Source: a virus (taxonomy: Duplodnaviria; Caudoviricetes). Taken from it: 64,000 nucleotides of DNA. Position numbers and translations under genes: made by a program. The stretch covers positions 1,328 through 65,327 of IMG/VR virus record IMGVR_UViG_2757320360_000002. One strand, written 5' to 3'. Positions 32,503-53,531 of the stretch are shown here, piece by piece. Positions within the stretch are counted from its first letter, which is position 1, and the number at the start of each line of letters is the position of its first letter. The notes below the pieces were generated by a model. That model ran no database searches. It saw only the letters and a program-made list of their open reading frames with translations, and was not told where the DNA came from.

Positions 32503-33051
32503 TTAGTCAAAGTTCAATAATAGCCGCTTTGCAGCGCGGCTATTATGAGACTGAACCAGACACTCTAGATCACTTACCATATCCTGAATGCGCTCGCGCT
32601 CAAACCCACCAGCGCATTGCACCTCCCCCTTGCCACCTCCCTTGCACGGCGCGCAGAACTGCCGATTGCTCGTCACGCCCGTTCCATGGCAAGCAACACA
32701 TTTCCCATCGAGCCAATGCGCAAGCGACGCGTGCGCCACGCGGTGATACAGGGCATGGGCGGCTTGTTGGTCCCATGCCGTGTTCGCCTTCACCCAGCCA
32801 CGCGAGCGACCTTTCTCTGCTACAGCCGCAGTCCAGATGCGCAGCAGCTGAGCCAAATTCGACGAGCCACTTTCGAAGAGCTGGCGCGCTGCACCGTCCG
32901 CGTACTTCACGCGCGACAGCAAGGCGCCCAGGCCAGCGCCCGACCGATCAGCCAGTGCCGCAGCCGCGAGCGCCTCCGTGAGGTGATGCCGCTCATCGTC
33001 TTTCAGGTTGGACGAGTTGATCGATGCGATATACTTTTCTGCGAAGCCCAT
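32503..33051 (-). CDS. Late antitermination protein Q-like
   Basis: Position before late leader; WLDGKCVACHGTG..CAPCKGGG zinc finger; AAAGGG RBS before ATG 33051. Confidence 0.75.
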   Translation of the reverse strand: MGFAEKYIASINSSNLKDDERHHLTEALAAAALADRSGAGLGALLSRVKYADGAARQLFESGSSNLAQLLRIWTAAVAEKGRSRGWVKANTAWDQQAAHALYHRVAHASLAHWLDGKCVACHGTGVTSNRQFCAPCKGGGKGEVQCAGGFERERIQDMVSDLECLVQSHNSRAAKRLLLNFD

Positions 33052-33128
33052 GAATTCCCTTTCGTTCCGTACGTCAACGTTAACACCCTTTTTAGCCCTG
33101 CGCCAGCCCTGCCACTCCTCGGAGCCGC

Positions 33129-33554
33129 TCATACCCGCAGCACGCCGGTTCGGTTGAATTCGCGCACGGCCGCCAGTCCAGCACGCGCAATCTCGACGTT
33201 CGACGCGCCACGCAGGAAGACCATGGTCTTGCCGACGCCCTCGCGCAGCACACGCATTTCATCGCCGTTGACGCCGAAGGTGCCCGTGCGCTGTGCGCGC
33301 GCCTGGATTTCTGCGATCGCTTCGACCATGGCCTGAGCCACCGGCAGGATGACATGGCCGTTTGGCGCAATGCGGCGCGCCATGTCGGCGTTGCTCAGCA
33401 GATCGTAGACGTGCTGCTCCTGGAAGTGCCCCTTCCCCATCGCCTCGCTGGCCTGGAAGCCTGGCATTTCGAATGCCATGGCCGGGCGGGCGCCTGGTGG
33501 CAGCACGGCCGGCTTCGGGGTGTACCGCTTGCGCGGCTTCTTGTTCGCGGCCAT
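33129..33554 (-). CDS. Hypothetical protein
   Basis: MAANKKPRKRY start coupled to upstream stop (TGATG). Confidence 0.7.
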   Translation of the reverse strand: MAANKKPRKRYTPKPAVLPPGARPAMAFEMPGFQASEAMGKGHFQEQHVYDLLSNADMARRIAPNGHVILPVAQAMVEAIAEIQARAQRTGTFGVNGDEMRVLREGVGKTMVFLRGASNVEIARAGLAAVREFNRTGVLRV

Positions 33555-34356: not shown

Positions 34357-35001
34357 TTATGCAGCGCGCCCATTGATGCGTGCCAGCGGCGCTGCGAGTG
34401 TGCCGACTGGCGCCATGGCGATGATTTGCTGCGACGTTCCACCCGCCATCACCTGAGCGGCCAACCTTTGATCGCCGATCATCATCGGCGGCTCCACACC
34501 AAAGCCGGCGCGCTGGTTTTGCGCTTCCGTCAAGCCCACCATCACCGGCGTGTAATCCGGCCGTTCGTTGCGCATGCGGTAGCCGCGGTAACGGTTTTCG
34601 AATTCCTTGCCGACGAATGGCCATTCGTGTTCCGTCTTTGCCCCCAGCGATACCCAGCCGCCCATCTCAACCAGCACGCGGTGGATCAGCGGGTCATCGA
34701 ACACGACGCTTCGGTATGGGCCGACGACGCGCAGTGCGCGGTCGACCTTCGACCAGGCCACGAGTGCCGAATCCTGCGTGGTTCCGCCCATCATCCGGAT
34801 CAGGTCGGCCGGCTTCGGCGCAAACTGGCCGGTATCGGGGTTGCGGACGTGGCGATCAAATGCCTGGCGCACAGCTGTCAGGTCGTACTGGCGCAGCGCG
34901 CCCCACCAGATCGTAATGGCGAACTCGCTTGCGGCCCTGCCGTACAGTTCGGTGATTGCGCCCACCATGCCCGCAAATTCCTCGTAGTCATCCTGCGTCA
35001 T
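34357..35001 (-). CDS. Replication protein P-like / DUF6475
   Basis: GQFAPKPADLI..GPYRSVVFDDPLIH.V...GGW pattern; follows initiator. Confidence 0.75.
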   Translation of the reverse strand: MTQDDYEEFAGMVGAITELYGRAASEFAITIWWGALRQYDLTAVRQAFDRHVRNPDTGQFAPKPADLIRMMGGTTQDSALVAWSKVDRALRVVGPYRSVVFDDPLIHRVLVEMGGWVSLGAKTEHEWPFVGKEFENRYRGYRMRNERPDYTPVMVGLTEAQNQRAGFGVEPPMMIGDQRLAAQVMAGGTSQQIIAMAPVGTLAAPLARINGRAA

Positions 35002-35794
35002 GCTTTTCTCCCTGCGGTGCTGCGTTACCGAAGATTCGGACTTTGGCGCGCTCAGCGGCGGCCATCGTTTGGGCGTAGACCGTACTGGAACCCGGCCCTG
35101 TTCGCACGGCGTGCTGGGTGATCCATTCGGCTTTGAACCCACGCCAGCCACGTTCGCAGCAAATGCGCAAAGCGCCTTCCAGGTCCAGTCCTGCCTTCTC
35201 GGCTTCGCGCACGATGCCCTGGATGGCCGTCCGCGTTATTGGCGCCTTGTGTTTCGTTCGCAGGGCCTTGAAATCGGCGACGATCTGCGGATCGACGTCG
35301 GGAAACAGGGAATCGGGAGCCGGAGGCGACTTGTCTTTTGTCTTTACTGGTTTATGGTTATTGGTTATTGGTTCTTGGTTAGTTTTTGATCCGGTTTCAG
35401 CTGGGTTGCCGGTAGCATCCGAATCAGAACCGGATGGAAACCCGCTGGGTTCTTGATTGGTTGCCGTTTGCTTGCGCGGGCGACCGCCCAGCTTGCCATT
35501 TGCTTTCGCTGTCTCTGCCTTGACTTGGTAGTCCGCAATCACCTGTTCGCAGACGTCGTGCCGGTAGCCCGCATCTGTCTTGAGGAACTTGAAGCGAAGC
35601 AGTCGCTCGACAATCGCGCGCTCGTCCGCCGCCTCGACGCCCAAGGCGTCGCACAGCACATCTATGTCGAGCGGGAGTGGTGCCTCGACGTCGTAGTAGA
35701 CGTCCATCATGTCGCGATATATCCAGCGCGCCTGGCGAGACATGTTCACTGTCCCAGAGCGAAAGTCGCCGATGTGGAAGGGGTAATAATTCAA
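34988..35794 (-). CDS. Replication initiator (YdaU/DUF1376, O-like)
   Basis: MNYYPFHIGDF..YRDMMDVYY motif; TTG start overlapping upstream stop. Confidence 0.85.
   Translation of the reverse strand: MNYYPFHIGDFRSGTVNMSRQARWIYRDMMDVYYDVEAPLPLDIDVLCDALGVEAADERAIVERLLRFKFLKTDAGYRHDVCEQVIADYQVKAETAKANGKLGGRPRKQTATNQEPSGFPSGSDSDATGNPAETGSKTNQEPITNNHKPVKTKDKSPPAPDSLFPDVDPQIVADFKALRTKHKAPITRTAIQGIVREAEKAGLDLEGALRICCERGWRGFKAEWITQHAVRTGPGSSTVYAQTMAAAERAKVRIFGNAAPQGEKHDAG
35348..35382. repeat. Five tandem 7-bp TGGTTNN units inside initiator gene; probable origin
   Basis: tggttta tggttat tggttat tggttct tggttag. Confidence 0.7.
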
Positions 35795-36552: not shown

Positions 36553-36956
36553 GGGCGCGCCTCCTGCACGCGCGCCGCGCCGAAAAGCGCAGCCACCAGC
36601 GGATCGCCCACGGCGCCCGCCTTGCGGATCCAGTACTTGCTGCGCCAGCGCGCCTTCATCGAGTCCCAGCGGCCGTCCTGCTTGGCCTTGGCCTCGAAGC
36701 GCAGGCGAATCTGGCGCTTGGTCAGGTGCTGCAGTTTGCATGGCGCGTCCGGCAGATCACCCACGGCATAAACCGCCATGGCGGCGCCGGCGCGCGGGTG
36801 CGGCTTCCAACTGGAAATGTAAATCTTGCGGTCGGCATGCAGCAGGTGCACCCACCGCAGCACGGCCGCTTGACTGACGCCCGACTTGATGACAATCTCG
36901 GCTTTGGTACCGGGCATCGCGCCCAGCACGAATTCACTGAAATTTGCGCGCGTCAC
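36549..36956 (-). CDS. Winged-HTH-like DNA-binding protein
   Basis: PGTKAEIVIKSGVSQAAVLRWV helix-turn-helix; coupled at both ends. Confidence 0.6.
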   Translation of the reverse strand: MTRANFSEFVLGAMPGTKAEIVIKSGVSQAAVLRWVHLLHADRKIYISSWKPHPRAGAAMAVYAVGDLPDAPCKLQHLTKRQIRLRFEAKAKQDGRWDSMKARWRSKYWIRKAGAVGDPLVAALFGAARVQEARP

Positions 36957-39580
36957 TTTGCATTCTCCTCGTCCATCAATTCCATATCGAACAGCGTGGG
37001 CATGCTCACCTCGCGCTCCATTGCCTGGCAGTAATGCACCTGGTCAGTGAAATACGCCGGGTTCAACTCACTGCCGGCGCCGCAGCGGCCCAGCTTCATC
37101 GCGCGCACTGGCACGGTACCCAGGCCACAGAACGGGTCATAAATCACTTCGCCCGGGTTGCTGTAGCGGCCGATAAGGCGGTCAACGATATCGATCTGGA
37201 AGGGGCAAACGTGCTTTTCGACAGCGCGCGCCGACTGCTCGCCGTTCAGGGTGCGCATGCGCACGATGTCGTGCCACACGGCCGGATCGGCGCTGCCCGG
37301 CGCCAGGCTGAGATAATCGGCAGGCAGTGCCTTATTGGCCAGCAGCGCCTCGCCGACCTCGACGTGGTATTCATAGTTGTAGACGTTGCCCATCGACATG
37401 CTGGTGAACAGCTTAGCCAGCTTGCCCGGGCCGAAACTGGCCAGCTCGGCCGCGCCCAGCAGGCGATCGCCACTGGAGCGCCAGAACGCATGCGCGTCGA
37501 CCTGCCAGCGCGCCACGCTGTAGCCAGTACCAGGAATCGGCGCGGCCTTGCGGTCAAACGGGATCCGGTCGCCGGCATCGTCCAGGCACATTGGCTTGGC
37601 CTTGGTCACAGGCGTATCGGCATAGCCACGGCTGCGGTCCGTCTGCGGCTTGTGGAACAGCAGGATGTATTCCGGCGAGCCGACGCCCATCTTCGTGCCG
37701 TCCTTGCACACCTCGGAATAGCCCAGGCGGTAGGTCTGGTTGTTTTCGCGCACCACGTCGGTCACTACCGTGATCATGCCCATATAGTCGAAGCCATGCT
37801 TTATGCCGTGGAACAGCGCCTCGGCATGAAACGGGCTGACCGTTGGCACGCCCGCGCCGGTGACGTTGCCGAAGTTGATGCGGTCCTTTACGTGGCAGGC
37901 GTAAATGCGGCCAGGCTGCAGGATGCGCAGCAGCTCGGGAGTCAGGAAGTCCATCTGCGCCCAGAAGTGGTCGTTGTCTTGGGTGTGGCCGAAATCGTTG
38001 TAGCTGGGTGTGTATTCGTAATGGTTGGCGAATGGAACGCTGGTGATGATCATGCCCACCGAGTTATCCGGTTGCTGCATGGCTTCCAGCACGCAATCGT
38101 TATTGGCCACCGAAAAACGCTCGCCGGCCACCACGGCGCGCTCGACGCCGATGGTGCGCGCCAGCGAATCCTGCATGGACAGCTGATCCAGGCCATAGGC
38201 GCGGATGATCTGGCCCATCTTGGCCTGCATTTCGTCGTGGCGACGCCATTTCTCCATCAGGTCGGCCAGCACCTTGCGTTCGACCTCCGTATGGATGATG
38301 TCGATGCGGACGGCGTGCTGCTGCTGGAAGCGCTGGACGCGGTGGATGGCCTGGATAAAATCGTTGAACTTGAAGCCGATCCCCGCGAAAATCTCGCGAT
38401 GGCAGTGCACCTGGAAGTTGCAGCCGCTGCCGGCGATGATCGGCTTGGTCGACAGATACTTGATCTTGCCGTCGCTGAAATCGGCGATGCGCTGCTCGCG
38501 CTGGTCCAGGTCCTGCGTGCCCCACACGCTGACCACGCCCGGCACGGCCGCCTGAATGGCGTGGCGCTCATCTTCCAGGTCGTGCCAGATCAGGAAATGA
38601 TCATCAGGATCTGCAGCTATGATCTCGGCCACCTTGGCGATGCGCGCGGCCATGCTGTCGCGCTTCTCGCCAGCAGCGGCCGACAGGCCCATGGCCACGT
38701 TCGGGATAAGCAGGCCCTGGCCGTTCTTTTCGGCGCCGGCCGTGCTGTAATTGCTCGGCACCTCATGAAAGCGCACGTCCAGCGCCGGCAGATCGTAGCC
38801 CTCATCAGAATGGCCCAAGTCGCTCGGGCGTTGGATGAAGACGGCCCAACTGGCCACCCACAGCCAGAATTCCTGTTCCTTATGCGGGTACAGCGTCAAG
38901 TTGCCCGCCTTCTCGCTGTCGCGTTGGAAGAACCGGGTCAGGGCCTGGCCGGTGTCCATCACGCCCAGGAAGCCGGCATAGTGGATCAATTCCTTGAAGC
39001 GGTTCGGCGAGGGCGTGGCCGTGTAGACGAACTTGAACTCGACTTGCTCGAACAGCGGCAGGAATTCTTGATACGTCTTGCTGCCGTAGCTGCGCAGCAC
39101 GCTGGCCTCGTCCAGGCCGACGGCGCGGAACTTGCGCACGTCGATCTTGCCCTCGCGCACCGATTCGTAGTTCGTCAGGTAGACGACGTCCTGGCTATCG
39201 ATCTCGGCGTCCGTCCGGATGAAGCGCACTTGCACCTCATATTCGCCCGTGAAGCGCTTCGCCGCCTCGCGGATGAACTCCTGGCGCACGCCCAGCGGCA
39301 GCACGATCAGGCGCAGGCCTGGCCGGTGAATACCGATCTGGCGCATGACCTCCAGGTTGGTACTGGTCTTGTGCAGGCCGAACGAGGCGAAGATGGCGCG
39401 CTGCCCGCCGGCCAAGGCCCAACGCACGATGTCACGGGTGTGCGGCTTGAGACCAGGATGGATATCGGCCAGTGGGACGTCGAAGCCCTTGCGCTGCGCC
39501 AGCTTGATCTTAGCGCGCAGGAATTCGCTGTATTCGGCTTCTTTCAGGTGTTTTTGCTCTTGCGGGCTAAAGGCGCTCAT
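36953..39580 (-). CDS. SNF2-like helicase fused to amino (N4C/N6A) DNA methyltransferase
   Basis: SFGLHKT, LDEAS, TATPSPN and QAIHRVQRF helicase motifs; ITSVPF (motif IV) and DPFCGLGT (motif I). Confidence 0.85.
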   Translation of the reverse strand: MSAFSPQEQKHLKEAEYSEFLRAKIKLAQRKGFDVPLADIHPGLKPHTRDIVRWALAGGQRAIFASFGLHKTSTNLEVMRQIGIHRPGLRLIVLPLGVRQEFIREAAKRFTGEYEVQVRFIRTDAEIDSQDVVYLTNYESVREGKIDVRKFRAVGLDEASVLRSYGSKTYQEFLPLFEQVEFKFVYTATPSPNRFKELIHYAGFLGVMDTGQALTRFFQRDSEKAGNLTLYPHKEQEFWLWVASWAVFIQRPSDLGHSDEGYDLPALDVRFHEVPSNYSTAGAEKNGQGLLIPNVAMGLSAAAGEKRDSMAARIAKVAEIIAADPDDHFLIWHDLEDERHAIQAAVPGVVSVWGTQDLDQREQRIADFSDGKIKYLSTKPIIAGSGCNFQVHCHREIFAGIGFKFNDFIQAIHRVQRFQQQHAVRIDIIHTEVERKVLADLMEKWRRHDEMQAKMGQIIRAYGLDQLSMQDSLARTIGVERAVVAGERFSVANNDCVLEAMQQPDNSVGMIITSVPFANHYEYTPSYNDFGHTQDNDHFWAQMDFLTPELLRILQPGRIYACHVKDRINFGNVTGAGVPTVSPFHAEALFHGIKHGFDYMGMITVVTDVVRENNQTYRLGYSEVCKDGTKMGVGSPEYILLFHKPQTDRSRGYADTPVTKAKPMCLDDAGDRIPFDRKAAPIPGTGYSVARWQVDAHAFWRSSGDRLLGAAELASFGPGKLAKLFTSMSMGNVYNYEYHVEVGEALLANKALPADYLSLAPGSADPAVWHDIVRMRTLNGEQSARAVEKHVCPFQIDIVDRLIGRYSNPGEVIYDPFCGLGTVPVRAMKLGRCGAGSELNPAYFTDQVHYCQAMEREVSMPTLFDMELMDEENAK

Positions 39581-40065
39581 GTGTGTTCCGATGTAGGTTG
39601 AATGGCGACGGGCGCTGCATCGAGCAGGCCCATCGACCGTAAAATTTCGTGCGTGGTGCTGACAGCCGCGCGAAACGCAGCCTCCAGGCCGGCCAGCGAC
39701 AGATCAGCCGGGCGCGGGCGCCTGCCGTCGAGCATGTCGTGGCAGGCGCTGCAGCCGAACGCTGCGGCCGTGTCTGGCGCTTTCAATCCCATGCCCTTCC
39801 CGTCAGCCAGGAAATTGCTGTGGCAGAGCACGGTGGTGTCAGGGTCGAAGTTGCAGACGGCCAGGCGCAGCGTGCAGTCCTGGCCCCGCGCTGCACGCCG
39901 GATCGGTGTCGAGATCGGGCCTTTTGACTTCATGCCGGCCTTGCGCTTCGGCGCCGTGCGCTGGTGCGACTGCACGGAGAGCATGCCGGTGCTGGGCATG
40001 GGCGAGGTGCGCTTGAATGGCGTGCGCGCCAAGGGTTTGCCTGGCTTCATGGGCGAGCGCTTCAT
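39577..40065 (-). CDS. DUF1364/YbcO-like nuclease-domain protein
   Basis: ARGQDCTLRL.VCN.DP.TTVLCH..GKGMGLK..GCSACHD..DGR. Confidence 0.85.
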   Translation of the reverse strand: MKRSPMKPGKPLARTPFKRTSPMPSTGMLSVQSHQRTAPKRKAGMKSKGPISTPIRRAARGQDCTLRLAVCNFDPDTTVLCHSNFLADGKGMGLKAPDTAAAFGCSACHDMLDGRRPRPADLSLAGLEAAFRAAVSTTHEILRSMGLLDAAPVAIQPTSEHT

Positions 40066-40355
40066 GGGGCCACGCTCCAACGTGTATGATTGACAATCAA
40101 AACCAAGCGAGGAGCATCAACAGTGTCCTTTCCACCAATGTTCGAGCCTACTGATCCTGCCGTCACAGCAGCAGCAATTGAACAAGCCGTGCAAGCCAAG
40201 CGAAGTGCGGATGCTGCCGTGTTGTCAGCGGAGGAGTCTGTTAAGTCTTCCGCGGCTGCGCAAATGTCAGCACGAGCATCAATATTTGCCGCCTTCGTTT
40301 CGTTCGCTGCGCTTATTGTTGCGATTGCAGCATTTTTTAAATCGCCATAGTTCAA
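40062..40355 (-). CDS. Bridge ORF 1 (97 aa), antisense to cargo gene
   Basis: TTG overlaps stop at 40352-40354; TGA overlaps DUF1364 ATG; protein itself is not family-like. Confidence 0.45.
   Translation of the reverse strand: MNYGDLKNAAIATISAANETKAANIDARADICAAAEDLTDSSADNTAASALRLACTACSIAAAVTAGSVGSNIGGKDTVDAPRLVLIVNHTRWSVAP
40123..40350 (+). CDS. Antisense cargo gene 1: 75-aa Ala-rich protein with C-terminal TM
   Basis: GAGGAG RBS 8 nt before GTG 40123; TATGAT -10 at 40085-40090. Confidence 0.7.
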   Translation: MSFPPMFEPTDPAVTAAAIEQAVQAKRSADAAVLSAEESVKSSAAAQMSARASIFAAFVSFAALIVAIAAFFKSP

Positions 40356-40480
40356 AGCTCGCCCTCCGAAAACAAACGCGGCTGCGCAGCGCCATTGGCG
40401 TATATGGAATCCATAACGGTCGTGGCGATAGGTTCGTCGCGGTAGCTACGCCGCTTGTCGCTGGTTAAATTCTTCATCAT
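40352..40480 (-). CDS. 42-aa hypothetical protein
   Basis: MMKNLTSDKRRSY.. starts in PAPS-reductase stop (ATGA). Confidence 0.5.
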   Translation of the reverse strand: MMKNLTSDKRRSYRDEPIATTVMDSIYANGAAQPRLFSEGEL

Positions 40481-41469
40481 TCGCAAAGTCCGTAAGCAGA
40501 GCTGCACGCCGTTGGCTCGTCCAACGCTGTGAGCAACGAAAATTGCTTGCCGCCGCGGCTGGTCTTCGACCATTCGACAACTGCTTCGATGGTCGAAGCC
40601 TGGCCCGAGTGCGCCTTAGTGCCCATATGGAAGAACGACACAGGTGAGCGCGGTCGGCATACCTCAGATACCAGGGCTTCCCATTCCGCGATTCGAACGA
40701 TGTGCTCAGGGAACCGGCGAGACACTTCGTGCAGCTCCCCTTTGCTGCAGTTGACGCAAGGCATGCAGCCGACGCGCGACATGCCTTGCTTGTAGAGCGG
40801 ATTTGGCTCGATGCCAGCCAAGCGATGGGCCTCGAACACGTCACCGACGTTCCAGCGCAAGATGGGCCGGTAGGTGAACAGGCCGCCGCCCACCACCTCA
40901 AAGTGCTTGACGCACGCGCCAGTACCTTGCAGCCGCTCGCGACGTGATTGGCTTTCATCGATACGGACGCCCTGCCAGGACCAGATCGCGTCGCACTCAT
41001 GATCAATCAATTCCATGGCGAACTCCGTCAAGGGTTTAGTCTTGAGGTATTCCGTGCAAAACTGCCGTTTGCGCGACGGGAAGCCGCCGCGCACCATGCA
41101 AAGGTCCAGGTATGGGTTTCCAGTTGGGTGAAGCAGGTCAAGGGCACGCTGGGCGGCCTCTGCCGTCCAGTGGTACATAAACTTGCGTTTTCCATATACA
41201 GCTGATTCAGGCTCGCCGGCCGCGATGCGTGCCAGGTTGGCTCGCTTGGTAGCGAACTCATCAGCGAAATCGGCTCGCACCACGTAAACCTTGATGCCCA
41301 GGGCCGCCGGCAAGTAGTCCAGCGCATATTCCAGCGTGCTCTCGTGCTCGTTGCCCGTATCGGCCATGACGAAGCGGCATGCGGCCGTACCGTGCTGTTC
41401 TAGGGCAAGAATGGCGGTAGCCGTGCTGTCCTTGCCGCCCGAAAGTGAAATCAAGTGGATCAGGCTCAT
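40477..41469 (-). CDS. PAPS-reductase-family (PP-loop) protein
   Basis: SLSGGKDS, ADTGNEH, CTEYLK..P, GVRIDES..R, NPLY..G.SRVGCMPC. Confidence 0.9.
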   Translation of the reverse strand: MSLIHLISLSGGKDSTATAILALEQHGTAACRFVMADTGNEHESTLEYALDYLPAALGIKVYVVRADFADEFATKRANLARIAAGEPESAVYGKRKFMYHWTAEAAQRALDLLHPTGNPYLDLCMVRGGFPSRKRQFCTEYLKTKPLTEFAMELIDHECDAIWSWQGVRIDESQSRRERLQGTGACVKHFEVVGGGLFTYRPILRWNVGDVFEAHRLAGIEPNPLYKQGMSRVGCMPCVNCSKGELHEVSRRFPEHIVRIAEWEALVSEVCRPRSPVSFFHMGTKAHSGQASTIEAVVEWSKTSRGGKQFSLLTALDEPTACSSAYGLCE

Positions 41470-41477
41470 GATAAAAT
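41466..41477 (+). promoter_or_regulatory. Extended -10 promoter candidate TCATGATAAAAT
   Basis: TGn-TAAAAT built on the reverse complement of the ATGA junction. Confidence 0.6.
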
Positions 41478-42104
41478 TGCCTTTTGACAAGAGGATATAT
41501 GTTGACTTGGTTTAGATGGGCGATGCTTGTAATTGCTTTGGGCGCAGCCGGCTACTACGGCTACCGAACGACTCCTTGGTCTTGTGTGGATGCGACGGTT
41601 ACTGCGTACTGGGTGCAGGCGATCGGTTCGATAGCAGCGATCTACTGGGCTGCACGCATTGCAAGTAGGCAGACTCACACAGCACGAATTGACCGGAAAA
41701 GAGCGCATCTTGAGACAGCAATGGCCACTCTTCTGCTCGCAGACCGCTTTCGCGAAGAGGCCATGAATGCGGCGCAACATGCGAGAAGTGCAATCATTTT
41801 TCATAGCGGATTGAAGCTCACATCTGCCAAAGACCGAGTTGAGCGCATCCACGCGAATATCGAGATTCTGTTTAAAAACAATGTTGATGCCGATGTATTG
41901 AGTATTGTTCTGAGAATCCACTCGCAGACTGGAGCAGCGCTCCGCAACATGGAGGCCGTGATCGGGGATAGTTCCAATCGAGATAACCACAAAGAGTCTG
42001 CCAGCACGGTGGTTGAGCATCTGAGTAACATTGCCCCTGATTTGAAGGCATGCACTCAAAGGATCGCGAGCGAACTTGCTAAAATTGACTAAATAAGTAG
42101 TCAC
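41466..42104 (-). CDS. Bridge ORF 2 (212 aa), antisense to cargo gene
   Basis: GTG overlaps MTase stop (GTGA); TGA overlaps PAPS-reductase ATG (ATGA). Confidence 0.45.
   Translation of the reverse strand: MTTYLVNFSKFARDPLSACLQIRGNVTQMLNHRAGRLFVVISIGTIPDHGLHVAERCSSLRVDSQNNTQYIGINIVFKQNLDIRVDALNSVFGRCELQSAMKNDCTSRMLRRIHGLFAKAVCEQKSGHCCLKMRSFPVNSCCVSLPTCNACSPVDRCYRTDRLHPVRSNRRIHTRPRSRSVAVVAGCAQSNYKHRPSKPSQHISSCQKAILS
41499..42092 (+). CDS. Antisense cargo gene 2: W-x-QAIG membrane protein
   Basis: GAGGA RBS; two TM segments, YWVQAIGSIAAI..SRQ, helical C-domain; AT-richer. Confidence 0.8.
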   Translation: MLTWFRWAMLVIALGAAGYYGYRTTPWSCVDATVTAYWVQAIGSIAAIYWAARIASRQTHTARIDRKRAHLETAMATLLLADRFREEAMNAAQHARSAIIFHSGLKLTSAKDRVERIHANIEILFKNNVDADVLSIVLRIHSQTGAALRNMEAVIGDSSNRDNHKESASTVVEHLSNIAPDLKACTQRIASELAKID

Positions 42105-44026
42105 GCCACCCTCACAATCTCGCGCTCATGCGCGAAGTTGGCGCGCATAGCAGAATCAATGCGGCGGCCGAGCCAAGCCACATTCGACACGGCCCAGCTG
42201 TTGCCGATGGCCTTATAGCGCGGACCGTCCGCTGCTGCGCGAGCAACCTGGTCGCGCGTCATCACCCCACCACGGAGCAGGTATTTGATCCAGTCCTGGT
42301 CAAGCTTTTCAGGGCGCATGGTGCGGCCGAAGGGTATGAGGGTGTAGTCGTCAGGGAACGCCTGAAGGCGCTCGCACTCGCGAGGCGTCAGGCGACGGAC
42401 TGCCATGCCCGCCAGCACCATTGGCATGCCTTGGCCAGGCTTGCCGCCGCCGGTCGACAGCGCGCCAGTGCGGCTGCCGTCGCCACCTTCCAGGCGGATT
42501 TCGGCGCGGCTATTCTCGGCGAATGCAGCCACAATTGGCTGCCCGCGCCCAGTGCCATCCTCGCTGGCATCGAAGCCTTCGGCTTTGAGGGTGTGCGTGA
42601 TGTCGCCCGTGATGCAGATAGCCTGCGCTTGGGGGCTGGATGTACTCAAAGTGCCGAAGACGCTGGTACTGCTCACGCAGTCCTGGCGCGCGTCGAAGGC
42701 GATAGCCGGTGGAATGCCGGCGTTGGCATGACTGCCAGCGTGGTTTCCAGCGCGTAGCGTCGGTGACAGGTCGTAGCAGGCGTCGCCACCGTAGTCCTTG
42801 CTGCTAAAGGCGATTGGCGCGAGCGCCACGCCGTGTTGCGCCCCGTTGTCTAGCGTGTACATCGGTGCGCCGGCGTTGCCGATACCCAGGCCGTTTTGAT
42901 CCTTGCCGCGGGTAGCGTTTTGGATTGGATACGCCACCTGCTGAACCAGGAATGTCTCGCTCTCAAAATCGAAATGTGGCCCGGCATGCGCGCGGCAGGC
43001 GGTGGCAACATGTATTTCGCCTGCCTGGTTATTGCCGCCGAAAGCCATAGGGATAAGCATGCCGGCTTCGGCATCTTGCTGCGTGGCGCTACCCGCAGCT
43101 TTTCCGTTCGCCCGCAGCGTACCGGCAATCAGCGTGTCCAAACCATCGCCACGTGGGCGCTCAACGCTGCGCGCCACTGGAGCGGCTACGGAAGCAGCGA
43201 AAGCAATGTCTTTCCCGTCGACCTGTCGTGCTCCGCCAATATCCTCGGTACTGACTGGCTGCAACCCGAGGCCGCATTCGTCCTGCACTCCGCCACGGCG
43301 CGCAGCGCTCGCTCTAACTGTGCCGGCAATGTCTTGCGGCGATTCTCGGCTCGGCGGAGAATCCCGGCGCACGCCGTCGAACTCAAAAAGTACCGATGCG
43401 GGATCGAACCCCTCTCCAGCACTTGCGACAACGAACACACGACGGCGTCGTTGGGCCACTCCGAAATATTGGGCGTCGAGGGTCCGCCACGCGACTGTTC
43501 GCGCGGGACCATACACACAACCAGCGTACGCCCACTTACCCCCTGGCGGCTCGATTGGATCATCTTCGCCGGCAAGGCCAGCAAGGAAGCAGCCGAAGGC
43601 ATTGTCTTTTGTGGAGAGAACGCCAGGGACGTTTTCCCAGAAGACAACGGCTGGAAGAAGTCCAGTTGCTGCGCGTCGTGCGTCAATTTCATCTGCAATC
43701 TCACAAAAAACAAGGGAAAGGTTGCCGCGCTCATCGTCGAGCGAATTGCGCAGGCCCGCAATCGAGAATGCCTGGCAAGGCGTACCGCCGCAAAAGACAT
43801 CGGGCGCTGGCACGAAGCCATCGCGAACCAGGGCGGCGACCTTGGTCATGTCGCCCAGGTTTGGTACGTCCGGATAGTGGTGCGCCAGCACGGCGCAAGG
43901 GAAAGGCTCGATCTCAGCCAACCAGGCCGCGCGCCAGCCGAGCGGGCCCCAGGCGACGCTGGCAGCCTCAAGGCCGCTGCATACGGAGCCGAAGGTAATG
44001 GGCATAGTGAAGGCGTCGCGCTTCAT
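42101..44026 (-). CDS. C5-cytosine DNA methyltransferase with long repetitive variable region
   Basis: FGSVCSG, GGTPCQAFS, WENVPG, QRRRRVF, RRLTPRECERLQ and YKAIGNS motifs. Confidence 0.92.
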   Translation of the reverse strand: MKRDAFTMPITFGSVCSGLEAASVAWGPLGWRAAWLAEIEPFPCAVLAHHYPDVPNLGDMTKVAALVRDGFVPAPDVFCGGTPCQAFSIAGLRNSLDDERGNLSLVFCEIADEIDARRAATGLLPAVVFWENVPGVLSTKDNAFGCFLAGLAGEDDPIEPPGGKWAYAGCVYGPARTVAWRTLDAQYFGVAQRRRRVFVVASAGEGFDPASVLFEFDGVRRDSPPSRESPQDIAGTVRASAARRGGVQDECGLGLQPVSTEDIGGARQVDGKDIAFAASVAAPVARSVERPRGDGLDTLIAGTLRANGKAAGSATQQDAEAGMLIPMAFGGNNQAGEIHVATACRAHAGPHFDFESETFLVQQVAYPIQNATRGKDQNGLGIGNAGAPMYTLDNGAQHGVALAPIAFSSKDYGGDACYDLSPTLRAGNHAGSHANAGIPPAIAFDARQDCVSSTSVFGTLSTSSPQAQAICITGDITHTLKAEGFDASEDGTGRGQPIVAAFAENSRAEIRLEGGDGSRTGALSTGGGKPGQGMPMVLAGMAVRRLTPRECERLQAFPDDYTLIPFGRTMRPEKLDQDWIKYLLRGGVMTRDQVARAAADGPRYKAIGNSWAVSNVAWLGRRIDSAMRANFAHEREIVRVA

Positions 44027-44034
44027 GCTAAGAT
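44023..44034 (+). promoter_or_regulatory. Extended -10 promoter candidate TCATGCTAAGAT
   Basis: TGn-TAAGAT at the same junction position as cassettes 2 and 4. Confidence 0.55.
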
Positions 44035-44766
44035 TCCTTTCAAACAACTTTGAATGCACTCGTGAAGAAATCCCATGTACTTCTTGGTATCGGACTGGTG
44101 GCGGGAGCGGTAGTTACCGGGTTCATTGGCAACTATGCAGGCCTGACGAAAGATAGCTGGCCTGGCTGGGTTCAGGCGATCGGCTCCATCGCTGCATTGG
44201 GAGTGGCGATATTCGTGATGAGCAGGCAGAATGCACATTCCGCTCGCCTTCTCGCCGAATCTGATAATCGCGTGATGACCCGCCGAGCTTCTGCAGTTTC
44301 TGCCCTTCTTGTCCGCGCCAATGAGCAACTGATAGAAGCAACTAAAAATCTCAAAGAAGCCGCGCGGGATGGCGACCAAACTAAATTTCACGTCACTTGG
44401 ATTGTTATTATTCCAGTGCTTAGGCAATGTCGAAGCGCCTTGGAAATGGTGCCTGCGCATGAGCTGGGTGCCTTCAAAATGGTAAGCGGGCTCCATTCCA
44501 TGATTGAGGCACTTGATTACTTTTTGGTGCTGGGTGAAGATTGGGAAACGATACCCTCTCCTTTGCACGATCCCATGTTCCAAATTCAATTTTGCGAAAG
44601 CCATCGAAATAGCGGCGCTAAAGCGCTCTCTGTTTTCAATCAAGGTGTTGACGAAATCACCGGTTAGCAACTTTTCCCATTCGACAATTGCCACGTTTTT
44701 TCCGTTAGCGGCATATTTTTTCTCGGTACGGGCTTTTGAGAAACAAGCAAACATTATTGGCTTCAT
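44023..44766 (-). CDS. Bridge ORF 3 (247 aa), antisense to cargo gene
   Basis: ATG overlaps stop at 44763-44765; TGA overlaps MTase ATG. Confidence 0.45.
   Translation of the reverse strand: MKPIMFACFSKARTEKKYAANGKNVAIVEWEKLLTGDFVNTLIENRERFSAAISMAFAKLNLEHGIVQRRGYRFPIFTQHQKVIKCLNHGMEPAYHFEGTQLMRRHHFQGASTLPKHWNNNNPSDVKFSLVAIPRGFFEIFSCFYQLLIGADKKGRNCRSSAGHHAIIRFGEKASGMCILPAHHEYRHSQCSDGADRLNPARPAIFRQACIVANEPGNYRSRHQSDTKKYMGFLHECIQSCLKGILA
44050..44667 (+). CDS. Antisense cargo gene 3: W-x-QAIG membrane protein
   Basis: Two TM segments, GWVQAIGSIAAL..SRQ; exact start uncertain (TTG 44050, no clear RBS). Confidence 0.78.
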   Translation: MNALVKKSHVLLGIGLVAGAVVTGFIGNYAGLTKDSWPGWVQAIGSIAALGVAIFVMSRQNAHSARLLAESDNRVMTRRASAVSALLVRANEQLIEATKNLKEAARDGDQTKFHVTWIVIIPVLRQCRSALEMVPAHELGAFKMVSGLHSMIEALDYFLVLGEDWETIPSPLHDPMFQIQFCESHRNSGAKALSVFNQGVDEITG

Positions 44767-45167
44767 GGGCGCACCTCGGCCGCAGGCCGGCGAACGACCA
44801 CGACAGGCATTGCGCCCACAGTACCGCGAAAGTGTGGAGTGGCCGCCTGGCCAGGCTGTTCCGGCTCGGCGCCCAGCAGCGCCGCCCGCGAGGCGTCTTT
44901 CAGTACGTAGCGAATGCCCGCCAGGCGCACATTCCCCTGGATGAAGCGCGAGAAGATCATGCGCAAGCGGTGCTCTATGCCCGCCTCTTCGATATCGAAG
45001 CCCGCGCGCTCGCAGATTTGGTAGAAGGTGCCGGGCCCGGCCAGCATCGCCTGCAGCAATACATACGAGCGGGAGCCCTGTTTAGGGAGCGTGATGCCAG
45101 AACGGCGGCGCTTCGTCTTATTTACGCCAAAAGTCGGGCGCGCGCGATCGTCAGCTTGGCCAGTCAC
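44763..45167 (-). CDS. Hypothetical protein, possibly HTH
   Basis: GTG 45167 overlaps KilA-N stop; stop overlaps bridge ORF 3 start. Confidence 0.6.
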   Translation of the reverse strand: MTGQADDRARPTFGVNKTKRRRSGITLPKQGSRSYVLLQAMLAGPGTFYQICERAGFDIEEAGIEHRLRMIFSRFIQGNVRLAGIRYVLKDASRAALLGAEPEQPGQAATPHFRGTVGAMPVVVVRRPAAEVRP

Positions 45168-45931
45168 AATGCCACCTCCGCCAGGACAGAATCGCGCCAT
45201 TTCACTTGCTGAATGGGCGTGCCGCTGGAGTGCGCCTTGCCCGTGTCCATCACGTAGGCGTGCTCCCGGCCCTTCTTCGTCGGCACCCAGTGCCCGGCGA
45301 TGTTCTCTTGCAAACCGGCCTGCACCAGCAGCTGGTTGAAGGCCTTTGCGCTCTTGACGAAGCGGCTGCCCAGTTCCGTAGGTGTGTAGTAAATCTCCTG
45401 GCTGGGCGTGGCCAGGTGCGTGCGCTCCATCAGCTGCAGCATGTTGACGCCGGTCAGGGCGGCCGTGCCCTGGTTTGCGCTGATGGCCGCAGCGTTCTTG
45501 TCGAGGCCGATCAGGCGAGCGATGCCGAAGATGGCGCGGAATTCCTTGGCGGGCGAAATTGCGCTGGCCTTGGGCGCGGTCGGCGCCTGGCCCGTGGCAA
45601 CGGAATGGAACGATTTATATACCTGAACTTCAAACTCAGGATCGATCCATGCCGCATAGCGCAGCACAATTAATTCCACGCCATAGCTCCCCTGCCTTGG
45701 GCCGCCACGAATCGTTTCGACCGATGCTATATTCGTAGCATCGCTCAAAATTTGTGCAAACGCCTCGACACCTGGGCTTTTGAGGAAATTCCCTGGGCGG
45801 TGCGAATCGGTTGCCTTGCCGCTTGCCATTGCGGCCTTGTGAAGGTCGTTGAGACAAAAGCGCCCAGCCTGATCGGTAGTGATCACCGTGTCTGCGATGT
45901 TGATGCTTTTCTGTTGTACAATTTGGTCCAT
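45164..45931 (-). CDS. KilA-N plus KilA-C/ANT antirepressor-type protein
   Basis: GRFCLNDLHKA..RPGNFL..GSYGVELIVLRYAAWIDPEFEV; YTPTELG..SAKAFNQLL..GLQ..WVPTKKG. Confidence 0.85.
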   Translation of the reverse strand: MDQIVQQKSINIADTVITTDQAGRFCLNDLHKAAMASGKATDSHRPGNFLKSPGVEAFAQILSDATNIASVETIRGGPRQGSYGVELIVLRYAAWIDPEFEVQVYKSFHSVATGQAPTAPKASAISPAKEFRAIFGIARLIGLDKNAAAISANQGTAALTGVNMLQLMERTHLATPSQEIYYTPTELGSRFVKSAKAFNQLLVQAGLQENIAGHWVPTKKGREHAYVMDTGKAHSSGTPIQQVKWRDSVLAEVAL

Positions 45932-47575: not shown

Positions 47576-47630
47576 ATATTACACGACTTGTGTATTTCGA
47601 TCAAACATTTTGTGTAACACACTCTGTGAA
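47576..47630. promoter_or_regulatory. OR region: pR (TTGATC-17-TAATAT, minus strand) and three ACAC-N5-GTGT operators
   Basis: tACACgacttGTGTa 47580-47594, AAACattttGTGT 47603-47615, ACACactctGTGA 47617-47629. Confidence 0.75.
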
Positions 47631-47647
47631 TGTTTAGCTATTCTTTG

Positions 47648-48337
47648 ATGATGAACAAAAAGGCAAACAATATTCCTTGGGAGCGCATTGAAGCGCGACT
47701 GGTGGAACTCCAAAAAGACCAGCAATGGCTGCGCGAAACGCTGGGCATTGCGCCCGCTGTATTGACGAACTGGAAATCACGCGGAGCGCCTGTTGGCAAA
47801 GCTGTGCCGGTGGCACGCGCCTTGGGTCTGACCACAGATCAGCTCTTGGGCCTCGACAGCTCATCCCATATTGCCGACGGCAGTCCCGTAACCGATGATG
47901 AAAGCATGGCACCTTCCACGGTCGCCATTCGCATGGTGCCAGAGCATGTGCGCGCCGGAATTACGGGCTTCGGAGCAGATCACATATTCGAGGACGGCGG
48001 CCACTTCCATATCCCGCGCCTTTGGCTGGAAGAGCGAGACTTGGCACCAGGCGCATTGCTGGCAATCAAAGTTAGGGGCGACAGCATGCGACCGCTGATG
48101 TTCGAGGGGGACGTAGTTGTCGTGAACGTCACTGACAAGAATCGGGTGAACGGCAGCGTATTTGCGCTGAATTTCAAGGGAGAGCCGGTCGTGAAGCGCC
48201 TCAAATATGAGCGCCGCGAGTGGTATCTAACATCTGAAAATCCAGACTTCCCGCAAGAGCCTTGTCGCCCTGGTGATTGCGACGTCATCGGTCGCGTCGT
48301 GCGCTTCGAGGCGCGCAATTTCAAGGATCGGCTATAA
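47648..48337 (+). CDS. cI: CI repressor (HTH plus S24 peptidase)
   Basis: HTH (LGIAPAVLTNWKSRG); V.GDSM.P and VVKRL autocleavage motifs. Confidence 0.92.
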   Translation: MMNKKANNIPWERIEARLVELQKDQQWLRETLGIAPAVLTNWKSRGAPVGKAVPVARALGLTTDQLLGLDSSSHIADGSPVTDDESMAPSTVAIRMVPEHVRAGITGFGADHIFEDGGHFHIPRLWLEERDLAPGALLAIKVRGDSMRPLMFEGDVVVVNVTDKNRVNGSVFALNFKGEPVVKRLKYERREWYLTSENPDFPQEPCRPGDCDVIGRVVRFEARNFKDRL

Positions 48338-48814
48338 ATGAAGGTCTTGATATTCGTCCTCGGCGCAATGCTTGCGCCGGTGGCCCACGCTGAGACTTGG
48401 CAATGCACGAACGTAGCATCTGGTCGCGTCTACACCGTCAGCCAGGCCGTGCCGGCCGACGCCTGCAAGCTGGTCAGCAGTACGAAGAATCCGCACTTCA
48501 CAGGCCCAGCAGTCAGTGAGCAGCCAGTTCCTGTATCCATGCGTACGCAACAGTCCTGCAACAAAGAAGCGGCTCAGGACGTACAGTTCGGCATCCGAGA
48601 ATTTGCCAAGTGGCACATCGAAGGCGATCACCTTGCCGTGCATTGGGTCTACGCAATCGAGAAGCAGCCTGAGGCGAAGCGCCTGCAGATGGTCACGACC
48701 TATGCGGATATGGATGCGTGCCTCGGTGGCGCTGCGCGGGAGATCATGTTCTACCGCAAAGGTAGGCTGATAGGGATTGCTTCGCCGGCGTCGGGTGTGA
48801 GGCTGATTAAATGA
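48338..48814 (+). CDS. Exported protein co-transcribed with cI
   Basis: Signal peptide MKVLIFVLGAMLAPVAHA; starts immediately after cI stop. Confidence 0.75.
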   Translation: MKVLIFVLGAMLAPVAHAETWQCTNVASGRVYTVSQAVPADACKLVSSTKNPHFTGPAVSEQPVPVSMRTQQSCNKEAAQDVQFGIREFAKWHIEGDHLAVHWVYAIEKQPEAKRLQMVTTYADMDACLGGAAREIMFYRKGRLIGIASPASGVRLIK

Positions 48815-48929
48815 TCTCTTAAAAATTGCATTAAATTCGTAGGTATGAGCATCTAACAATAGTGTAATCGCGATTTCAAGAAATTTAACAATTCTCAATT
48901 TCGCGTTGAGGAAATGGATCGGAACTTAT

Positions 48930-49247
48930 ATGAGCGAAGAAAAAAGTGGGCCAGCAGAATCTGGAAAGCTCAATTTTGCAGATGTTACTGAAGATGACTT
49001 CAAATTATTTTTACAAGAAAGAGTTAAAAGCCACGCTTGTCCTTCTTGTGGCACAAATGGCTGGGGAATTTTATCAGCGCCAAATATGAATTTTGGATTG
49101 ATCGCTCTTTCGAAGAGTGGGGCGTTTTCAATCCCGCCTCCAAACATTCCCACTATGGGGGTTGCTTGCAACAACTGTGGCTACATTCGTCAGCATGCAT
49201 TGGGCATCATCGTTCAGTGGAAGGCCGCCAAGAAAGTCGCCACATGA
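48930..49247 (+). CDS. Zinc-ribbon protein
   Basis: CPSC..CNNCG; AT-rich. Confidence 0.7.
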   Translation: MSEEKSGPAESGKLNFADVTEDDFKLFLQERVKSHACPSCGTNGWGILSAPNMNFGLIALSKSGAFSIPPPNIPTMGVACNNCGYIRQHALGIIVQWKAAKKVAT

Positions 49248-49843
49248 CATACACTGTACGGACAGATGAGATCCTTCGAACCATATACCAGAATCCTTCT
49301 TCAAATGATGTACACTTCGAAGAAACAGGGTTCCGACTGATTGACATTGAGGCAACCGCGAATCATGAGAAGAAAGACACTATGAGCGCGACAACAGATA
49401 AGGATTACATTGACGCCCGACTGAAAGCGATGAGCGACAGCCTCGATCAGCGGCTGGAGACGGCTGCGGCCAAGTCGGATGGAAGACTGGAAGTCATTGA
49501 GACTCGGATGGATGCCCGAATCGCTTCTCTGGACGTGAAACTTACCACTGGCATGGCGGCCATGGATGCCAAGTTCGATGCAAATTTCGCGCGCTTTGAG
49601 TCACTACTTCACAAAACGACGGCGGATATACATAAGGCCACCACGGATACTCTCTCAAGAGTCATCGCCATCGTGTCTGGCCTGGTTGGTGTTGGGATTG
49701 CCGTAATAGTGCTGGTAATTAACAATATGGCGCCGAAGCCCGCGTCAGTTGCGCCAGCGCCGGTCGTGATCTACGCACAGCCAGCGCCGCCGACGACTAC
49801 CGCCCCGCCTCAAGTGCTTCCGGCGCCTGCTGCCAAGCCCTGA
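49244..49843 (+). CDS. Coiled-coil protein with C-terminal TM and Pro-rich tail
   Basis: ATGA-coupled to zinc-ribbon gene; heptad region then VIAIVSGLVGVGIAVIVLVI. Confidence 0.7.
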   Translation: MTYTVRTDEILRTIYQNPSSNDVHFEETGFRLIDIEATANHEKKDTMSATTDKDYIDARLKAMSDSLDQRLETAAAKSDGRLEVIETRMDARIASLDVKLTTGMAAMDAKFDANFARFESLLHKTTADIHKATTDTLSRVIAIVSGLVGVGIAVIVLVINNMAPKPASVAPAPVVIYAQPAPPTTTAPPQVLPAPAAKP

Positions 49844-53419: not shown

Positions 53420-53531
53420 TCGACGTGGCCAGCCAGGCCCTGCGCAACTGGCATGCCGGCCACGCCATCGTCTACGCCGTCCGCCTGGCGCTGTTGAAGG
53501 CAGAAATCATAAAACTCACAAGGAAAAAGTC

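Follow-up and report, generated by a model that had tools for sequence, protein, structure and literature searches.

The window, by which we refer to the whole stretch of 64,000 nucleotides that was analysed, belongs to a dsDNA provirus of Janthinobacterium. Within its early operons are found three genes (cargo A, B, and C) that lie antisense to the genes around them, each of which is covered on the operon strand by a stop-free ORF (bridges A, B, and C; Table 1). The DNA methyltransferase gene adjoins two bridges, preceding bridge A and following bridge B, and the 145-aa early gene that precedes bridge B has orthologues, 81–93% identical and in the same position, in five related proviruses. 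The coordinates and the GTGA and ATGA junctions that were specified for the three bridges in the original prediction proved to be exact.

Table 1. Genes, bridge ORFs, and promoter-like motifs at the loci described in this work.
Feature	Position	Strand	Description
Fourth claimed bridge	40062..40355	-	97 codons; TTGA and ATGA overlaps
PAPS reductase-like early gene	40477..41469	-	phrog_424, E = 1.6e-63; downstream of bridge A
Bridge ORF A	41466..42104	-	212 codons; codon-aligned with cargo A
TGATAAAAT	41469..41477	+	extended -10-like motif for cargo A, fused to PAPS reductase ATG
Cargo gene A	41499..42092	+	197 aa; two-TM protein, motif WVQAIGS; antisense to early operon
DNA methyltransferase gene	42101..44026	-	641 aa from ATG 44026; phrog_116, E = 2e-85
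Bridge ORF B	44023..44766	-	247 codons; codon-aligned with cargo B
TGCTAAGAT	44026..44034	+	extended -10-like motif for cargo B, fused to methyltransferase ATG
Cargo gene B	44050..44667	+	two TM helices, then four-helix bundle
145-aa early gene	44763..45200	-	upstream of bridge B
Recombination-associated exonuclease-like (exonuclease/RdgC-like) gene	58267..59736	+	phrog_724, E = 3e-79; upstream of bridge C
Bridge ORF C	59733..60401	+	222 codons; codon-aligned with cargo C
Cargo gene C	59739..60383	-	214 aa; third paralogue, motif WMQAIGA; antisense to rightward early operon
TGCTAATAT	60390..60398	-	extended -10-like motif for cargo C, fused to phrog_874 gene ATG
phrog_874 gene	60398..61042	+	E = 3.9e-70; downstream of bridge C

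The three cargo genes are paralogues, and each encodes a two-TM protein. Cargo A and cargo B match each other directly (BLASTP E = 1e-6), and an HMM of the family matched cargo A and cargo C with E values of 1e-36 and 5e-29, respectively. Cargo B, which is 205 aa long when read from TTG 44050 and 201 aa in public gene calls, where it begins at GTG 44062, has 41 database homologues in Janthinobacterium, Massilia, and metagenomes, and its AlphaFold2 model shows a confident fold (mean pLDDT 86). Between homologues, substitutions at cargo codon position 3 (0.58–0.69) are far above those at positions 1 and 2. Because of the paralogues with a conserved motif, the 41 homologues, the confident fold, and the concentration of substitutions in codon position 3, the sequence evidence indicates that it is the cargo strand which encodes a protein and is under protein-level selection. 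With regard to the function of the cargo, searches with Pfam, PHROGs, PADLOC, and fold comparison yielded only weak matches to phrog_33632; the fold search gave no match at E <= 0.001, PADLOC no match to the cargo family, and SieB (PF14163) was not matched at E <= 0.05–0.1 by any of 29 family members.

The triplet boundaries of cargo and bridge coincide in all three pairs (coordinates modulo 3; the -0 frame), and each bridge extends exactly from the stop codon of one operon gene to the start codon of the next. The GTG with which bridge A begins overlaps the TGA of the methyltransferase gene (GTGA, 42101–42104), and its own TGA shares bases with the PAPS reductase ATG (ATGA, 41466–41469). Bridge B is joined through ATGA to the 145-aa gene's stop where it begins (44763–44766) and to the methyltransferase start where it ends (44023–44026), and it also covers a 99-nt spacer 3' of the cargo B stop. 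Similarly, ATGA overlaps join bridge C to the stop of the exonuclease/RdgC-like gene (59733–59736) and to the start of the phrog_874 gene (60398–60401). A Shine-Dalgarno-like GAGG is present 5' of the bridge A GTG and, at a distance of 7 nt, upstream of the bridge B ATG. The downstream genes carry Shine-Dalgarno sites of their own (AAGGA, AAGG, or GGAG, 8–10 nt before the ATG; for the methyltransferase ATG at 44026, AAGGA at 8 nt), and hence coupling is not obviously required for their initiation.

It had been proposed that four of four cargo genes within operons share this arrangement. The cassettes at 41499–42092, 44050–44667, and 59739–60383 are solid cases, but the fourth is not. The frame at 40062–40355 is staggered rather than codon-aligned with the plus-strand ORF 40090–40350, no homologues were found for either strand of this locus, and the frame is stop-free in 26–29% of synonymous shuffles, which is no better than chance; it may represent an ordinary small operon gene. 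A staggered frame in the exonuclease/phrog_874 slot of G006 was stop-free in 8% of such shuffles, which is likewise not significant.

The openness of the bridges corresponds to the absence from the cargo genes of the three stop-complement codons TTA, CTA, and TCA, none of which occurs among the 61 Leu and 43 Ser codons of cargo A, B, and C. The GC3 of these genes is 0.53, 0.50, and 0.51, and the frequency with which each gene uses A-ending codons in other codon families leads one to expect 7.1, 7.9, and 9.0 such codons, respectively [P(0) = 1.5e-4, 2.2e-5, and 1.1e-5]. AT-rich control genes of the window do contain them, including the three outside coupled operons for which this had been stated earlier (68–919 with 11, 31760–32500 with 16, and 48930–49247 with 5) as well as 49037–49843 with 8. 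Limitation by tRNAs was considered as a cause acting on the sense strand and was ruled out, because other genes of the lysogen region use these codons. They are also lacking from 20 of the 53 called genes of the window, an 875-codon helicase gene included. Since end-to-end aligned antisense frames are thus common in its GC3-rich genes, the signal resides, as the original prediction had cautioned, in the combination of cargo with a GC3 of about 0.5 and double coupling. In a larger set of 16 non-redundant genes with an open antisense frame (3305 codons, GC3 0.53), CTA accounted for 0/239, TCA for 0/128, and TTA for 0/94 codons, i.e., 0/461 of the Leu (CTN, TTR) and Ser (TCN) codons, whereas other A-ending four-fold codons made up 19–34% and other A/G pairs 49–62%. 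As trinucleotides, the three are found in frame 0 times in 3305 but 187 and 107 times in 3289 in the other two frames. Judged by these counts, the stop avoidance in the cargo is specific for these codons and for the frame, in agreement with the depletion that had been anticipated.

Examination of 53 non-redundant genes of the family revealed that 25 of them have no TTA, CTA, or TCA, where 0.23 such genes would be expected, and that the distribution is bimodal, with either 0 or 2–13 of these codons per gene. On the family tree the open and broken states interchange at least 11 times, at least three of these changes are forced by well-supported branches, and sister lineages with a broken frame lie nested within open ones. 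These patterns indicate that the stop-free state is maintained by ongoing selection. In 10 related proviruses, 16–17 of 19 family copies possess an ATGA at the downstream end together with an NTGA that overlaps the stop codon of a preceding ORF (at least 50–60 aa long). In diverged filled alleles the aligned antisense frame has remained open and both overlaps have been kept, as was expected from the original prediction. A Shine-Dalgarno-like motif is found 5' of the bridge start at 10–13 of 16 loci, in comparison to 11% of random sites. The coupled copies occur in at least six different flank contexts, these being drawn from related loci and whole IMG/VR records, with flank genes in the related loci called by a crude codon-score caller that misses AT-rich and small genes. 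Because one phage lineage contributes many of the open loci as orthologous slots, about 6–8 contexts, not 25, count as independent.

The bridge design is, however, not universal. The third-slot alleles of the family in the closely related proviruses G007 (at 60296–60952) and G004 contain 6–9 antisense stops and have no bridge, and about half of the distant homologues are also broken, although most of them are likewise flanked by opposite-strand genes; taken together, these broken alleles carry 6–13 antisense stops. In view of their existence, the bridge is dispensable in some phages and the design is conditional. Frequent interruption of homologous frames was to have counted against the original prediction, and the frequency found here comes close to that; however, the bimodal distribution favours conditional selection instead of none. 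Empty junctions had also been envisaged, but no empty U-ATGA-D junction was found in the orthologous slots of the 10 related proviruses, every one of which is occupied, either by a cargo gene or by GC-rich ORFs on the operon strand.

The start codon of the gene downstream of each bridge is fused to an extended -10-like motif directed toward the cargo (Table 1). The reverse complement of TGATAAAAT constitutes the spacer between the Shine-Dalgarno site and the ATG of the PAPS reductase gene, and the junction aaggaatcttagcATGA is kept in six related proviruses. The motif TGnTAnnAT is present ~30–36 nt upstream of the cargo start in 19/27 open-frame homologues versus 0.3% of random 70-mers, and the fused junction TCATGnTAnnAT in 14/27 open but only 1/26 broken genes (Fisher p = 1.3e-4). 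Within this family, the open state goes with tight embedding, and the cargo probably has its own, predicted, extended -10 promoter. A scan with the sigma-70 consensus performed no better than on shuffles, and after cargo A or B no terminator-like site was found beyond shuffle expectation. In a small RNA-library run from the same strain, contigs 41423–43375, 44056–45412, and 59276–60365 cover all three cargo genes, in keeping with the proposal that they are expressed in the lysogen, these being contigs of a single run from which strand, level, and transcript ends are not readable. The contig edges nearest to the cargo starts lie at 41423, upstream of the motif, for cargo A, at 44056 for cargo B, and at 60365 for cargo C, and at their other ends the contigs continue past the cargo stops for 0.46–1.3 kb into the upstream operon gene. 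Other regions, e.g., 53006–57000 and 41000–41422, have no contig cover, which is not evidence of silence.

At the level of sequence, these comparisons demonstrate selection for an open and coupled frame without selection on its peptide. We consider it rather probable that the operon-strand ORFs are pass-through bridge frames over real cargo genes, which are kept open against polarity. The bridge frame would then be translated and its benefit would be anti-polar. During lytic growth, the early-operon transcript would have to traverse each cargo gene backwards; a ribosome terminating at the upstream gene would restart in the overlapping NTGA, translate a meaningless peptide over the whole cassette, and terminate in the ATGA of the next gene. 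In this manner, some 650–750 nt of otherwise untranslated and slightly C-over-G RNA (C/G ratios in the operon sense are 1.19, 1.04, and 1.23 for the bridges versus 0.85–1.00 for the flanking genes) would never be bare, and the covered RNA would escape premature (probably Rho-dependent) termination or decay, with translational coupling retained. Whether temperate phages with backward accessory genes in coupled early operons follow this as a rule seems to us evenly balanced. Under such a rule, the operon strand would be a translated, sequence-free relay ORF running from NTGA to NTGA, a translational alternative to N/Q-type antitermination, combined here with a 12-nt dual-use junction that would provide the Shine-Dalgarno spacer and ATG of the next gene on one strand and the extended -10 promoter of the cargo on the other.

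A second, rather unlikely explanation is that selection favours translation of the bridge on grounds unrelated to polarity, viz. blocking of pairing with the convergent cargo transcript (and thus RNase III cleavage or antisense silencing), protection from RNases, or passage of RNA polymerase through the cargo promoter. This would account for the same sequence evidence, and the extension of the contigs into the upstream gene with no terminator-like site makes a long antisense RNA plausible; protection of RNA by ribosomes has also been proposed for narnaviruses (Retallack et al., 2021, PMC8316113). The contigs are strandless, and nothing in the present results separates this explanation from anti-polarity.

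It is considerably less likely that cargo and bridge form a true antisense overlapping gene pair, in which the bridge would encode a functional product, e.g., a fast-evolving or disordered early protein that counters or partners the cargo. The bridge frames are open, have start codons and often Shine-Dalgarno-like motifs, and lie within an operon, and in narnaviruses mass spectrometry can detect the product of the reverse ORF (Retallack et al., 2021, PMC8316113). However, conserved four-fold sites differ in codon equally in open and broken homologue pairs (0.696 vs. 0.685), and so does the identity of the antisense frame (0.240 vs. 0.238). The third positions of the cargo codons, with which the first positions of the bridge codons coincide, are saturated, and a test for purifying selection on the proteins of both strands was positive for the cargo but not for the bridge. 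The bridge peptides, that of bridge A included, have no family match, they are rich in Cys, Arg, and Ser (3.6–6.6% Cys), and relatives with a broken frame exist. These results indicate that the bridge peptide is under no sequence constraint, showing no excess conservation over broken-frame homologues, which fits the earlier description of the bridge as a dummy ORF. Lastly, a shadow-ORF artefact, in which codon bias or avoidance of TTA, CTA, and TCA on the sense strand (rare tRNAs) produces the frames and the overlaps are coincidental, is very improbable, for although GC-rich hosts rarely use TTA and CTA and 20/53 ordinary GC3-rich genes of the window are open in the aligned antisense frame, it is disfavoured by the GC3 of ~0.5 and free use of other A-ending codons in the cargo, the frame-specificity of the avoidance, the use of these codons by other AT-rich genes of the same prophage (49037–49843 among them), the excess of zero-stop genes, the nesting of broken among open lineages, and the recurrence of double NTGA coupling in several contexts.

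If the pass-through bridges are translated as we propose, they would represent selection on the openness of a reading frame alone in a DNA genome, and they would explain, in a concrete and testable way, how a prophage can carry lysogen-expressed genes in reverse orientation within lytic operons that remain unbroken. They would also link the operon design of phages to the unexplained ambigrammatic narnaviruses. It would also follow that long 'shadow' ORFs discarded by annotators can function without a functional protein, that the codon usage of accessory genes (no TTA, CTA, or TCA) can betray their genomic context, and that antisense payloads are feasible in engineered phages or operons when recoded in this way. 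Should the relay-ORF rule be true, DNA phages would use ambigrammatic coding as a general device, and it would no longer be an oddity of narnaviruses.

The design had been put forward as one without a known description. Our literature searches retrieved nothing relevant on DUF4760 and antisense overlapping ORFs in prophages, and among the matches listed for 'ambigrammatic' there was no phage or bacterial subject; the stop-free coupled bridge is not described in print for phages, but a close analogue is, the narnaviruses being the closest. The shadow ORFs of GC-rich genomes are also long, codon-aligned antisense frames, and they are common in the ordinary genes of the window. In contrast to them, the bridges occur in DNA with a GC3 of 0.5, where the three stop-complement codons are absent and other A-ending codons are used, and they end exactly in the stop and start codons of their neighbours. 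Phage morons are accessory units that are autonomous, each having a promoter and a terminator of its own. The cargo genes resemble them in being AT-richer, in their conserved promoter-like motif, and in lying under RNA-library contigs of the lysogen strain, but they differ in that no terminator-like site follows the cargo, intergenic spacers are lacking, the start codon of the neighbour lies within reach of the promoter-like motif and overlaps it, and the other strand is kept open. Excludon-type regulation would involve a long cargo-sense transcript that overlaps the opposing operon gene and has a regulatory effect; the strandless RNA contigs span both the cargo and its upstream operon gene.

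The sieB gene of lambda and P22, a lysogen-expressed exclusion gene with an accessory or lysogenic role, is, similar to the cargo, a backward membrane-protein gene of ~190–200 aa within an early operon. In lambda (34482–35036), it is antisense in the pL operon between early genes, next to N, and abuts the stop of the upstream gene. However, lambda sieB has nine aligned antisense stops and no bridge, unlike cargo A, B, and C, and the cargo family has no detectable homology to SieB. Lambda relies on N antitermination, and we count this contrast in favour of the anti-polarity explanation.

The ambigrammatic narnaviruses have a reverse ORF over their RdRp gene, which is full-length and codon-aligned through avoidance of UUA, CUA, and UCA; no reverse protein is recognizable, and translation as such is the proposed function (DeRisi et al., 2019, PMC6884476; Retallack et al., 2021, PMC8316113). 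The cargo/bridge pairs share with them a gene-spanning, codon-aligned reverse-complement ORF and an absence of UUA, CUA, and UCA that is kept across diverged relatives. However, narnaviruses are eukaryotic RNA viruses with genomes of ~3 kb, and the dsDNA prophage operon described here is an analogue and not a member of this group. Whereas the benefit proposed for narnaviruses is protection or persistence of the RNA, that of the bridges is likely to be continuity of the transcript (anti-polarity), and, unlike the narnavirus reverse ORF, the bridge covers only inserted backward genes and is coupled stop-to-start to both neighbours.

The junctions of the three bridge ORFs, the stop-free operon-strand frames over cargo genes A, B, and C, were read directly from the sequence, and all agreed with the coordinates given in the original prediction. 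Bridge A starts with a GTG overlapping the TGA of the methyltransferase gene and ends in a TGA overlapping the ATG of the PAPS reductase gene; bridges B and C have ATGA at either end, and all three are codon-aligned with the cargo gene on the opposite strand. The window represents 64 kb of an IMG/VR provirus of 65.3 kb, and its overall GC content is about 61%. The leftward early operon has the order regulator, 145-aa gene, cargo B, DNA methyltransferase, cargo A, PAPS reductase, 73-aa gene, HNH, and helicase, and cargo C lies in a rightward operon with a recombination-associated exonuclease-like gene on one side and the phrog_874 gene on the other.

Positions of the features discussed in the text (in the window unless another genome is named)
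Feature	Position (strand)	Remarks
Cargo A	41499-42092 (+)	
Bridge A	42104-41466 (-)	
Cargo B	44050-44667 (+)	
Bridge B	44766-44023 (-)	
Cargo C	59739-60383 (-)	
Bridge C	59733-60401 (+)	
12-mer TCATG(A/C)TAAnAT	41466-41477 (+), 44023-44034 (+), 60401-60390 (-)	dual-use; extended -10-like on cargo strand
Fourth proposed cassette	40062-40355	
Helicase gene	36953-39580 (-)	GC3 0.83
ORF opposite helicase	36944-39601 (+)	885 codons, aligned
RNA contig	41423-43375	spans cargo A, extends into methyltransferase gene
RNA contig	44056-45412	spans cargo B and 145-aa gene
RNA contig	59276-60365	spans cargo C, extends into exonuclease gene
RNA contig	47662-49840	longest and deepest of run (depth 87); plus-strand genes 47630-48337, 48338-48814, 49037-49843
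Third-slot allele L095	G007, 60296-60952	
Third-slot allele L097	G004, ~32741-33400	
Backward gene L098	G006, ~3306-4073	exonuclease/phrog_874 slot
sieB (L112)	lambda, 34482-35036	

The cargo strand carries real genes. The paralogous cargo proteins A, B, and C share a pair of TM helices at the N terminus and the motif W-x-QAIG. For cargo B, 41 database homologues were found, with relatives from Janthinobacterium and Massilia and one protein, encoded on a 6.17-Mb contig, that matches it at 100% identity; its confident AlphaFold2 model (mean pLDDT 86) shows a four-helix bundle in addition to the two TM helices. Differences among homologues are far more frequent at codon position 3 (0.58-0.69) than at position 1 (0.25-0.43) or position 2, which is likewise far below position 3, and this points to purifying selection on the cargo protein. 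Family-profile, PADLOC, and fold searches of the cargo proteins gave no assignable function.

It had been cautioned that open antisense frames are frequent in this GC-rich genome, and indeed 20 of the 53 called genes in the window, including the 875-codon helicase gene, lack any TTA, CTA, or TCA codon. The GC3 of these ordinary genes is 0.7-0.87, and the ORF opposite the helicase gene is an ordinary GC-rich shadow ORF, useful as a negative comparison. The three cargo genes have a GC3 of only 0.50-0.53, yet none of their 61 Leu and 43 Ser codons is TTA, CTA, or TCA. Judged by how often each gene uses A-ending codons in its other codon families, 7.1, 7.9, and 9.0 such codons are expected (probability of none 1.5e-4, 2.2e-5, and 1.1e-5). 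In AT-rich genes from elsewhere in this prophage, taken as controls, there are 5-16 each; that AT-rich cargo outside coupled operons contains such codons had been noted originally.

The comparison was extended to 55 loci encoding members of this family and to ten related proviruses (G001-G010) taken whole. Counts of aligned antisense stops were bimodal, with zero in 25 of 53 non-redundant genes (0.23 expected), here referred to as open, and 1-13 in the remaining, broken genes. The proposed codon depletion was borne out in 16 non-redundant open genes (3305 codons, GC3 0.53), where CTA (0/239), TCA (0/128), and TTA (0/94) are all absent, although A-ending codons have shares of 19-34% in other four-fold families and of 49-62% in other A/G pairs; in broken homologues the three account for 19%, 34%, and 26%, respectively. 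The depletion is frame-specific, with 0/3305 stop-complement triplets in this frame against 187/3289 and 107/3289 in the other two. As roughly 70% of the conserved four-fold sites have different codons in open-open pairs (35-70% identity), the absence of these codons is maintained rather than inherited. The state changed at least 11 times on the family tree, at least three of these changes being forced by well-supported branches, and the broken homologues L018 (12 stops) and L020 (9 stops), for example, sit nested within open lineages.

In 16-17 of the 19 family copies in the ten proviruses, the zero-stop frame ends in ATGA with the downstream operon ORF, and its ATG, GTG, or TTG overlaps the stop of the upstream ORF. 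The genes flanking these doubly coupled frames differ, giving no fewer than six contexts (about 6-8 independent ones). Upstream of the bridge start, a Shine-Dalgarno-like motif is present at 10 of 16 loci (13 when an ATG located 5 nt downstream of a TTGA also counts), compared with 11% of random sites. The expectation that filled alleles keep the frame open with both overlaps thus holds for most copies but fails for the third-slot alleles of G007 and G004, which have 6-9 aligned antisense stops, a GC3 of 0.40-0.51, and no spanning operon-strand ORF. These two alleles are natural bridge knock-outs. Among the distant homologues, roughly half are broken too, though most are likewise flanked by opposite-strand genes.

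Three insertion slots (before HNH, methyltransferase/PAPS reductase, and exonuclease/phrog_874) are occupied in all ten proviruses, and the empty junctions with direct NTGA overlap that had been envisaged were not found in any of them. The slots contain family copies (1-4 per provirus), other cargo, or, as in G001 and G002, GC-rich operon-strand ORFs, and they look like cargo hot spots. In G006, one holds an unrelated backward gene (~237 aa, TM helix and HEPN-like R-x4-H motif) under a 252-codon operon-strand ORF with GTGA and ATGA overlaps; this ORF is staggered and stop-free in 8% of synonymous shuffles, hence only suggestive of a bridge. The original prediction included four cassettes of four. 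Cargo A, B, and C conform to it, but the fourth is staggered and stop-free in 26-29% of synonymous shuffles, and a search for its homologues found none.

The sequence TGnTAnnAT, located about 30-36 nt upstream of the cargo start in 19/27 open genes and 6/26 broken genes (present in 0.3% of random 70-mers), fits a putative extended -10 promoter belonging to the cassette. It is fused to the neighbor's start as TCATGnTAnnAT in 14/27 open but 1/26 broken genes (Fisher p = 1.3e-4); thus, open frames accompany tight embedding. Read on the operon strand, the 12-mer contains the bridge stop together with the SD spacer and ATG of the gene that follows. No terminator-like site was found after the cargo genes. 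In a single, small RNA-library data set from the same strain, contigs identical to the window cover all three cargo genes, each joined to the upstream operon gene, with strand, level, and transcript ends not readable from them. The deepest contig is probably from the lysogeny or immunity region.

The bridge peptides, rich in Cys/Arg/Ser, matched nothing in family searches. Antisense-frame identity is 0.240 in open pairs and 0.238 in broken pairs, and codon difference at conserved four-fold sites is 0.696 and 0.685, respectively. The bridge peptide is hence not under purifying selection; selection targets openness and the junctions, not a protein. In the best-supported reading, the bridge is a pass-through ORF that would be translated: ribosomes leaving the upstream gene would restart at NTGA, traverse the cassette, and terminate at the ATGA where the next gene starts. 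Their passage would keep the operon RNA covered, preventing Rho-type polarity or decay; the C/G ratio of this RNA is 1.04-1.23 over cargo versus 0.85-1.00 in flanking genes. As the downstream genes possess their own Shine-Dalgarno sites, transcript continuity seems more likely than initiation coupling to be the selected benefit.

Lambda sieB, which lies on the strand opposite N and directly adjoins its stop codon, is analogous in position to the cargo genes, but it is unbridged and has nine aligned antisense stops, whereas cargo A, B, and C are bridged and have none. Lambda uses N antitermination. Our literature search found no account of this design for phages or bacteria. The cargo/bridge pairs resemble the ambigrammatic narnaviruses, which need their reverse ORF intact, in their codon signature, aligned frame, and lack of a conserved reverse protein (PMC6884476, PMC8316113).
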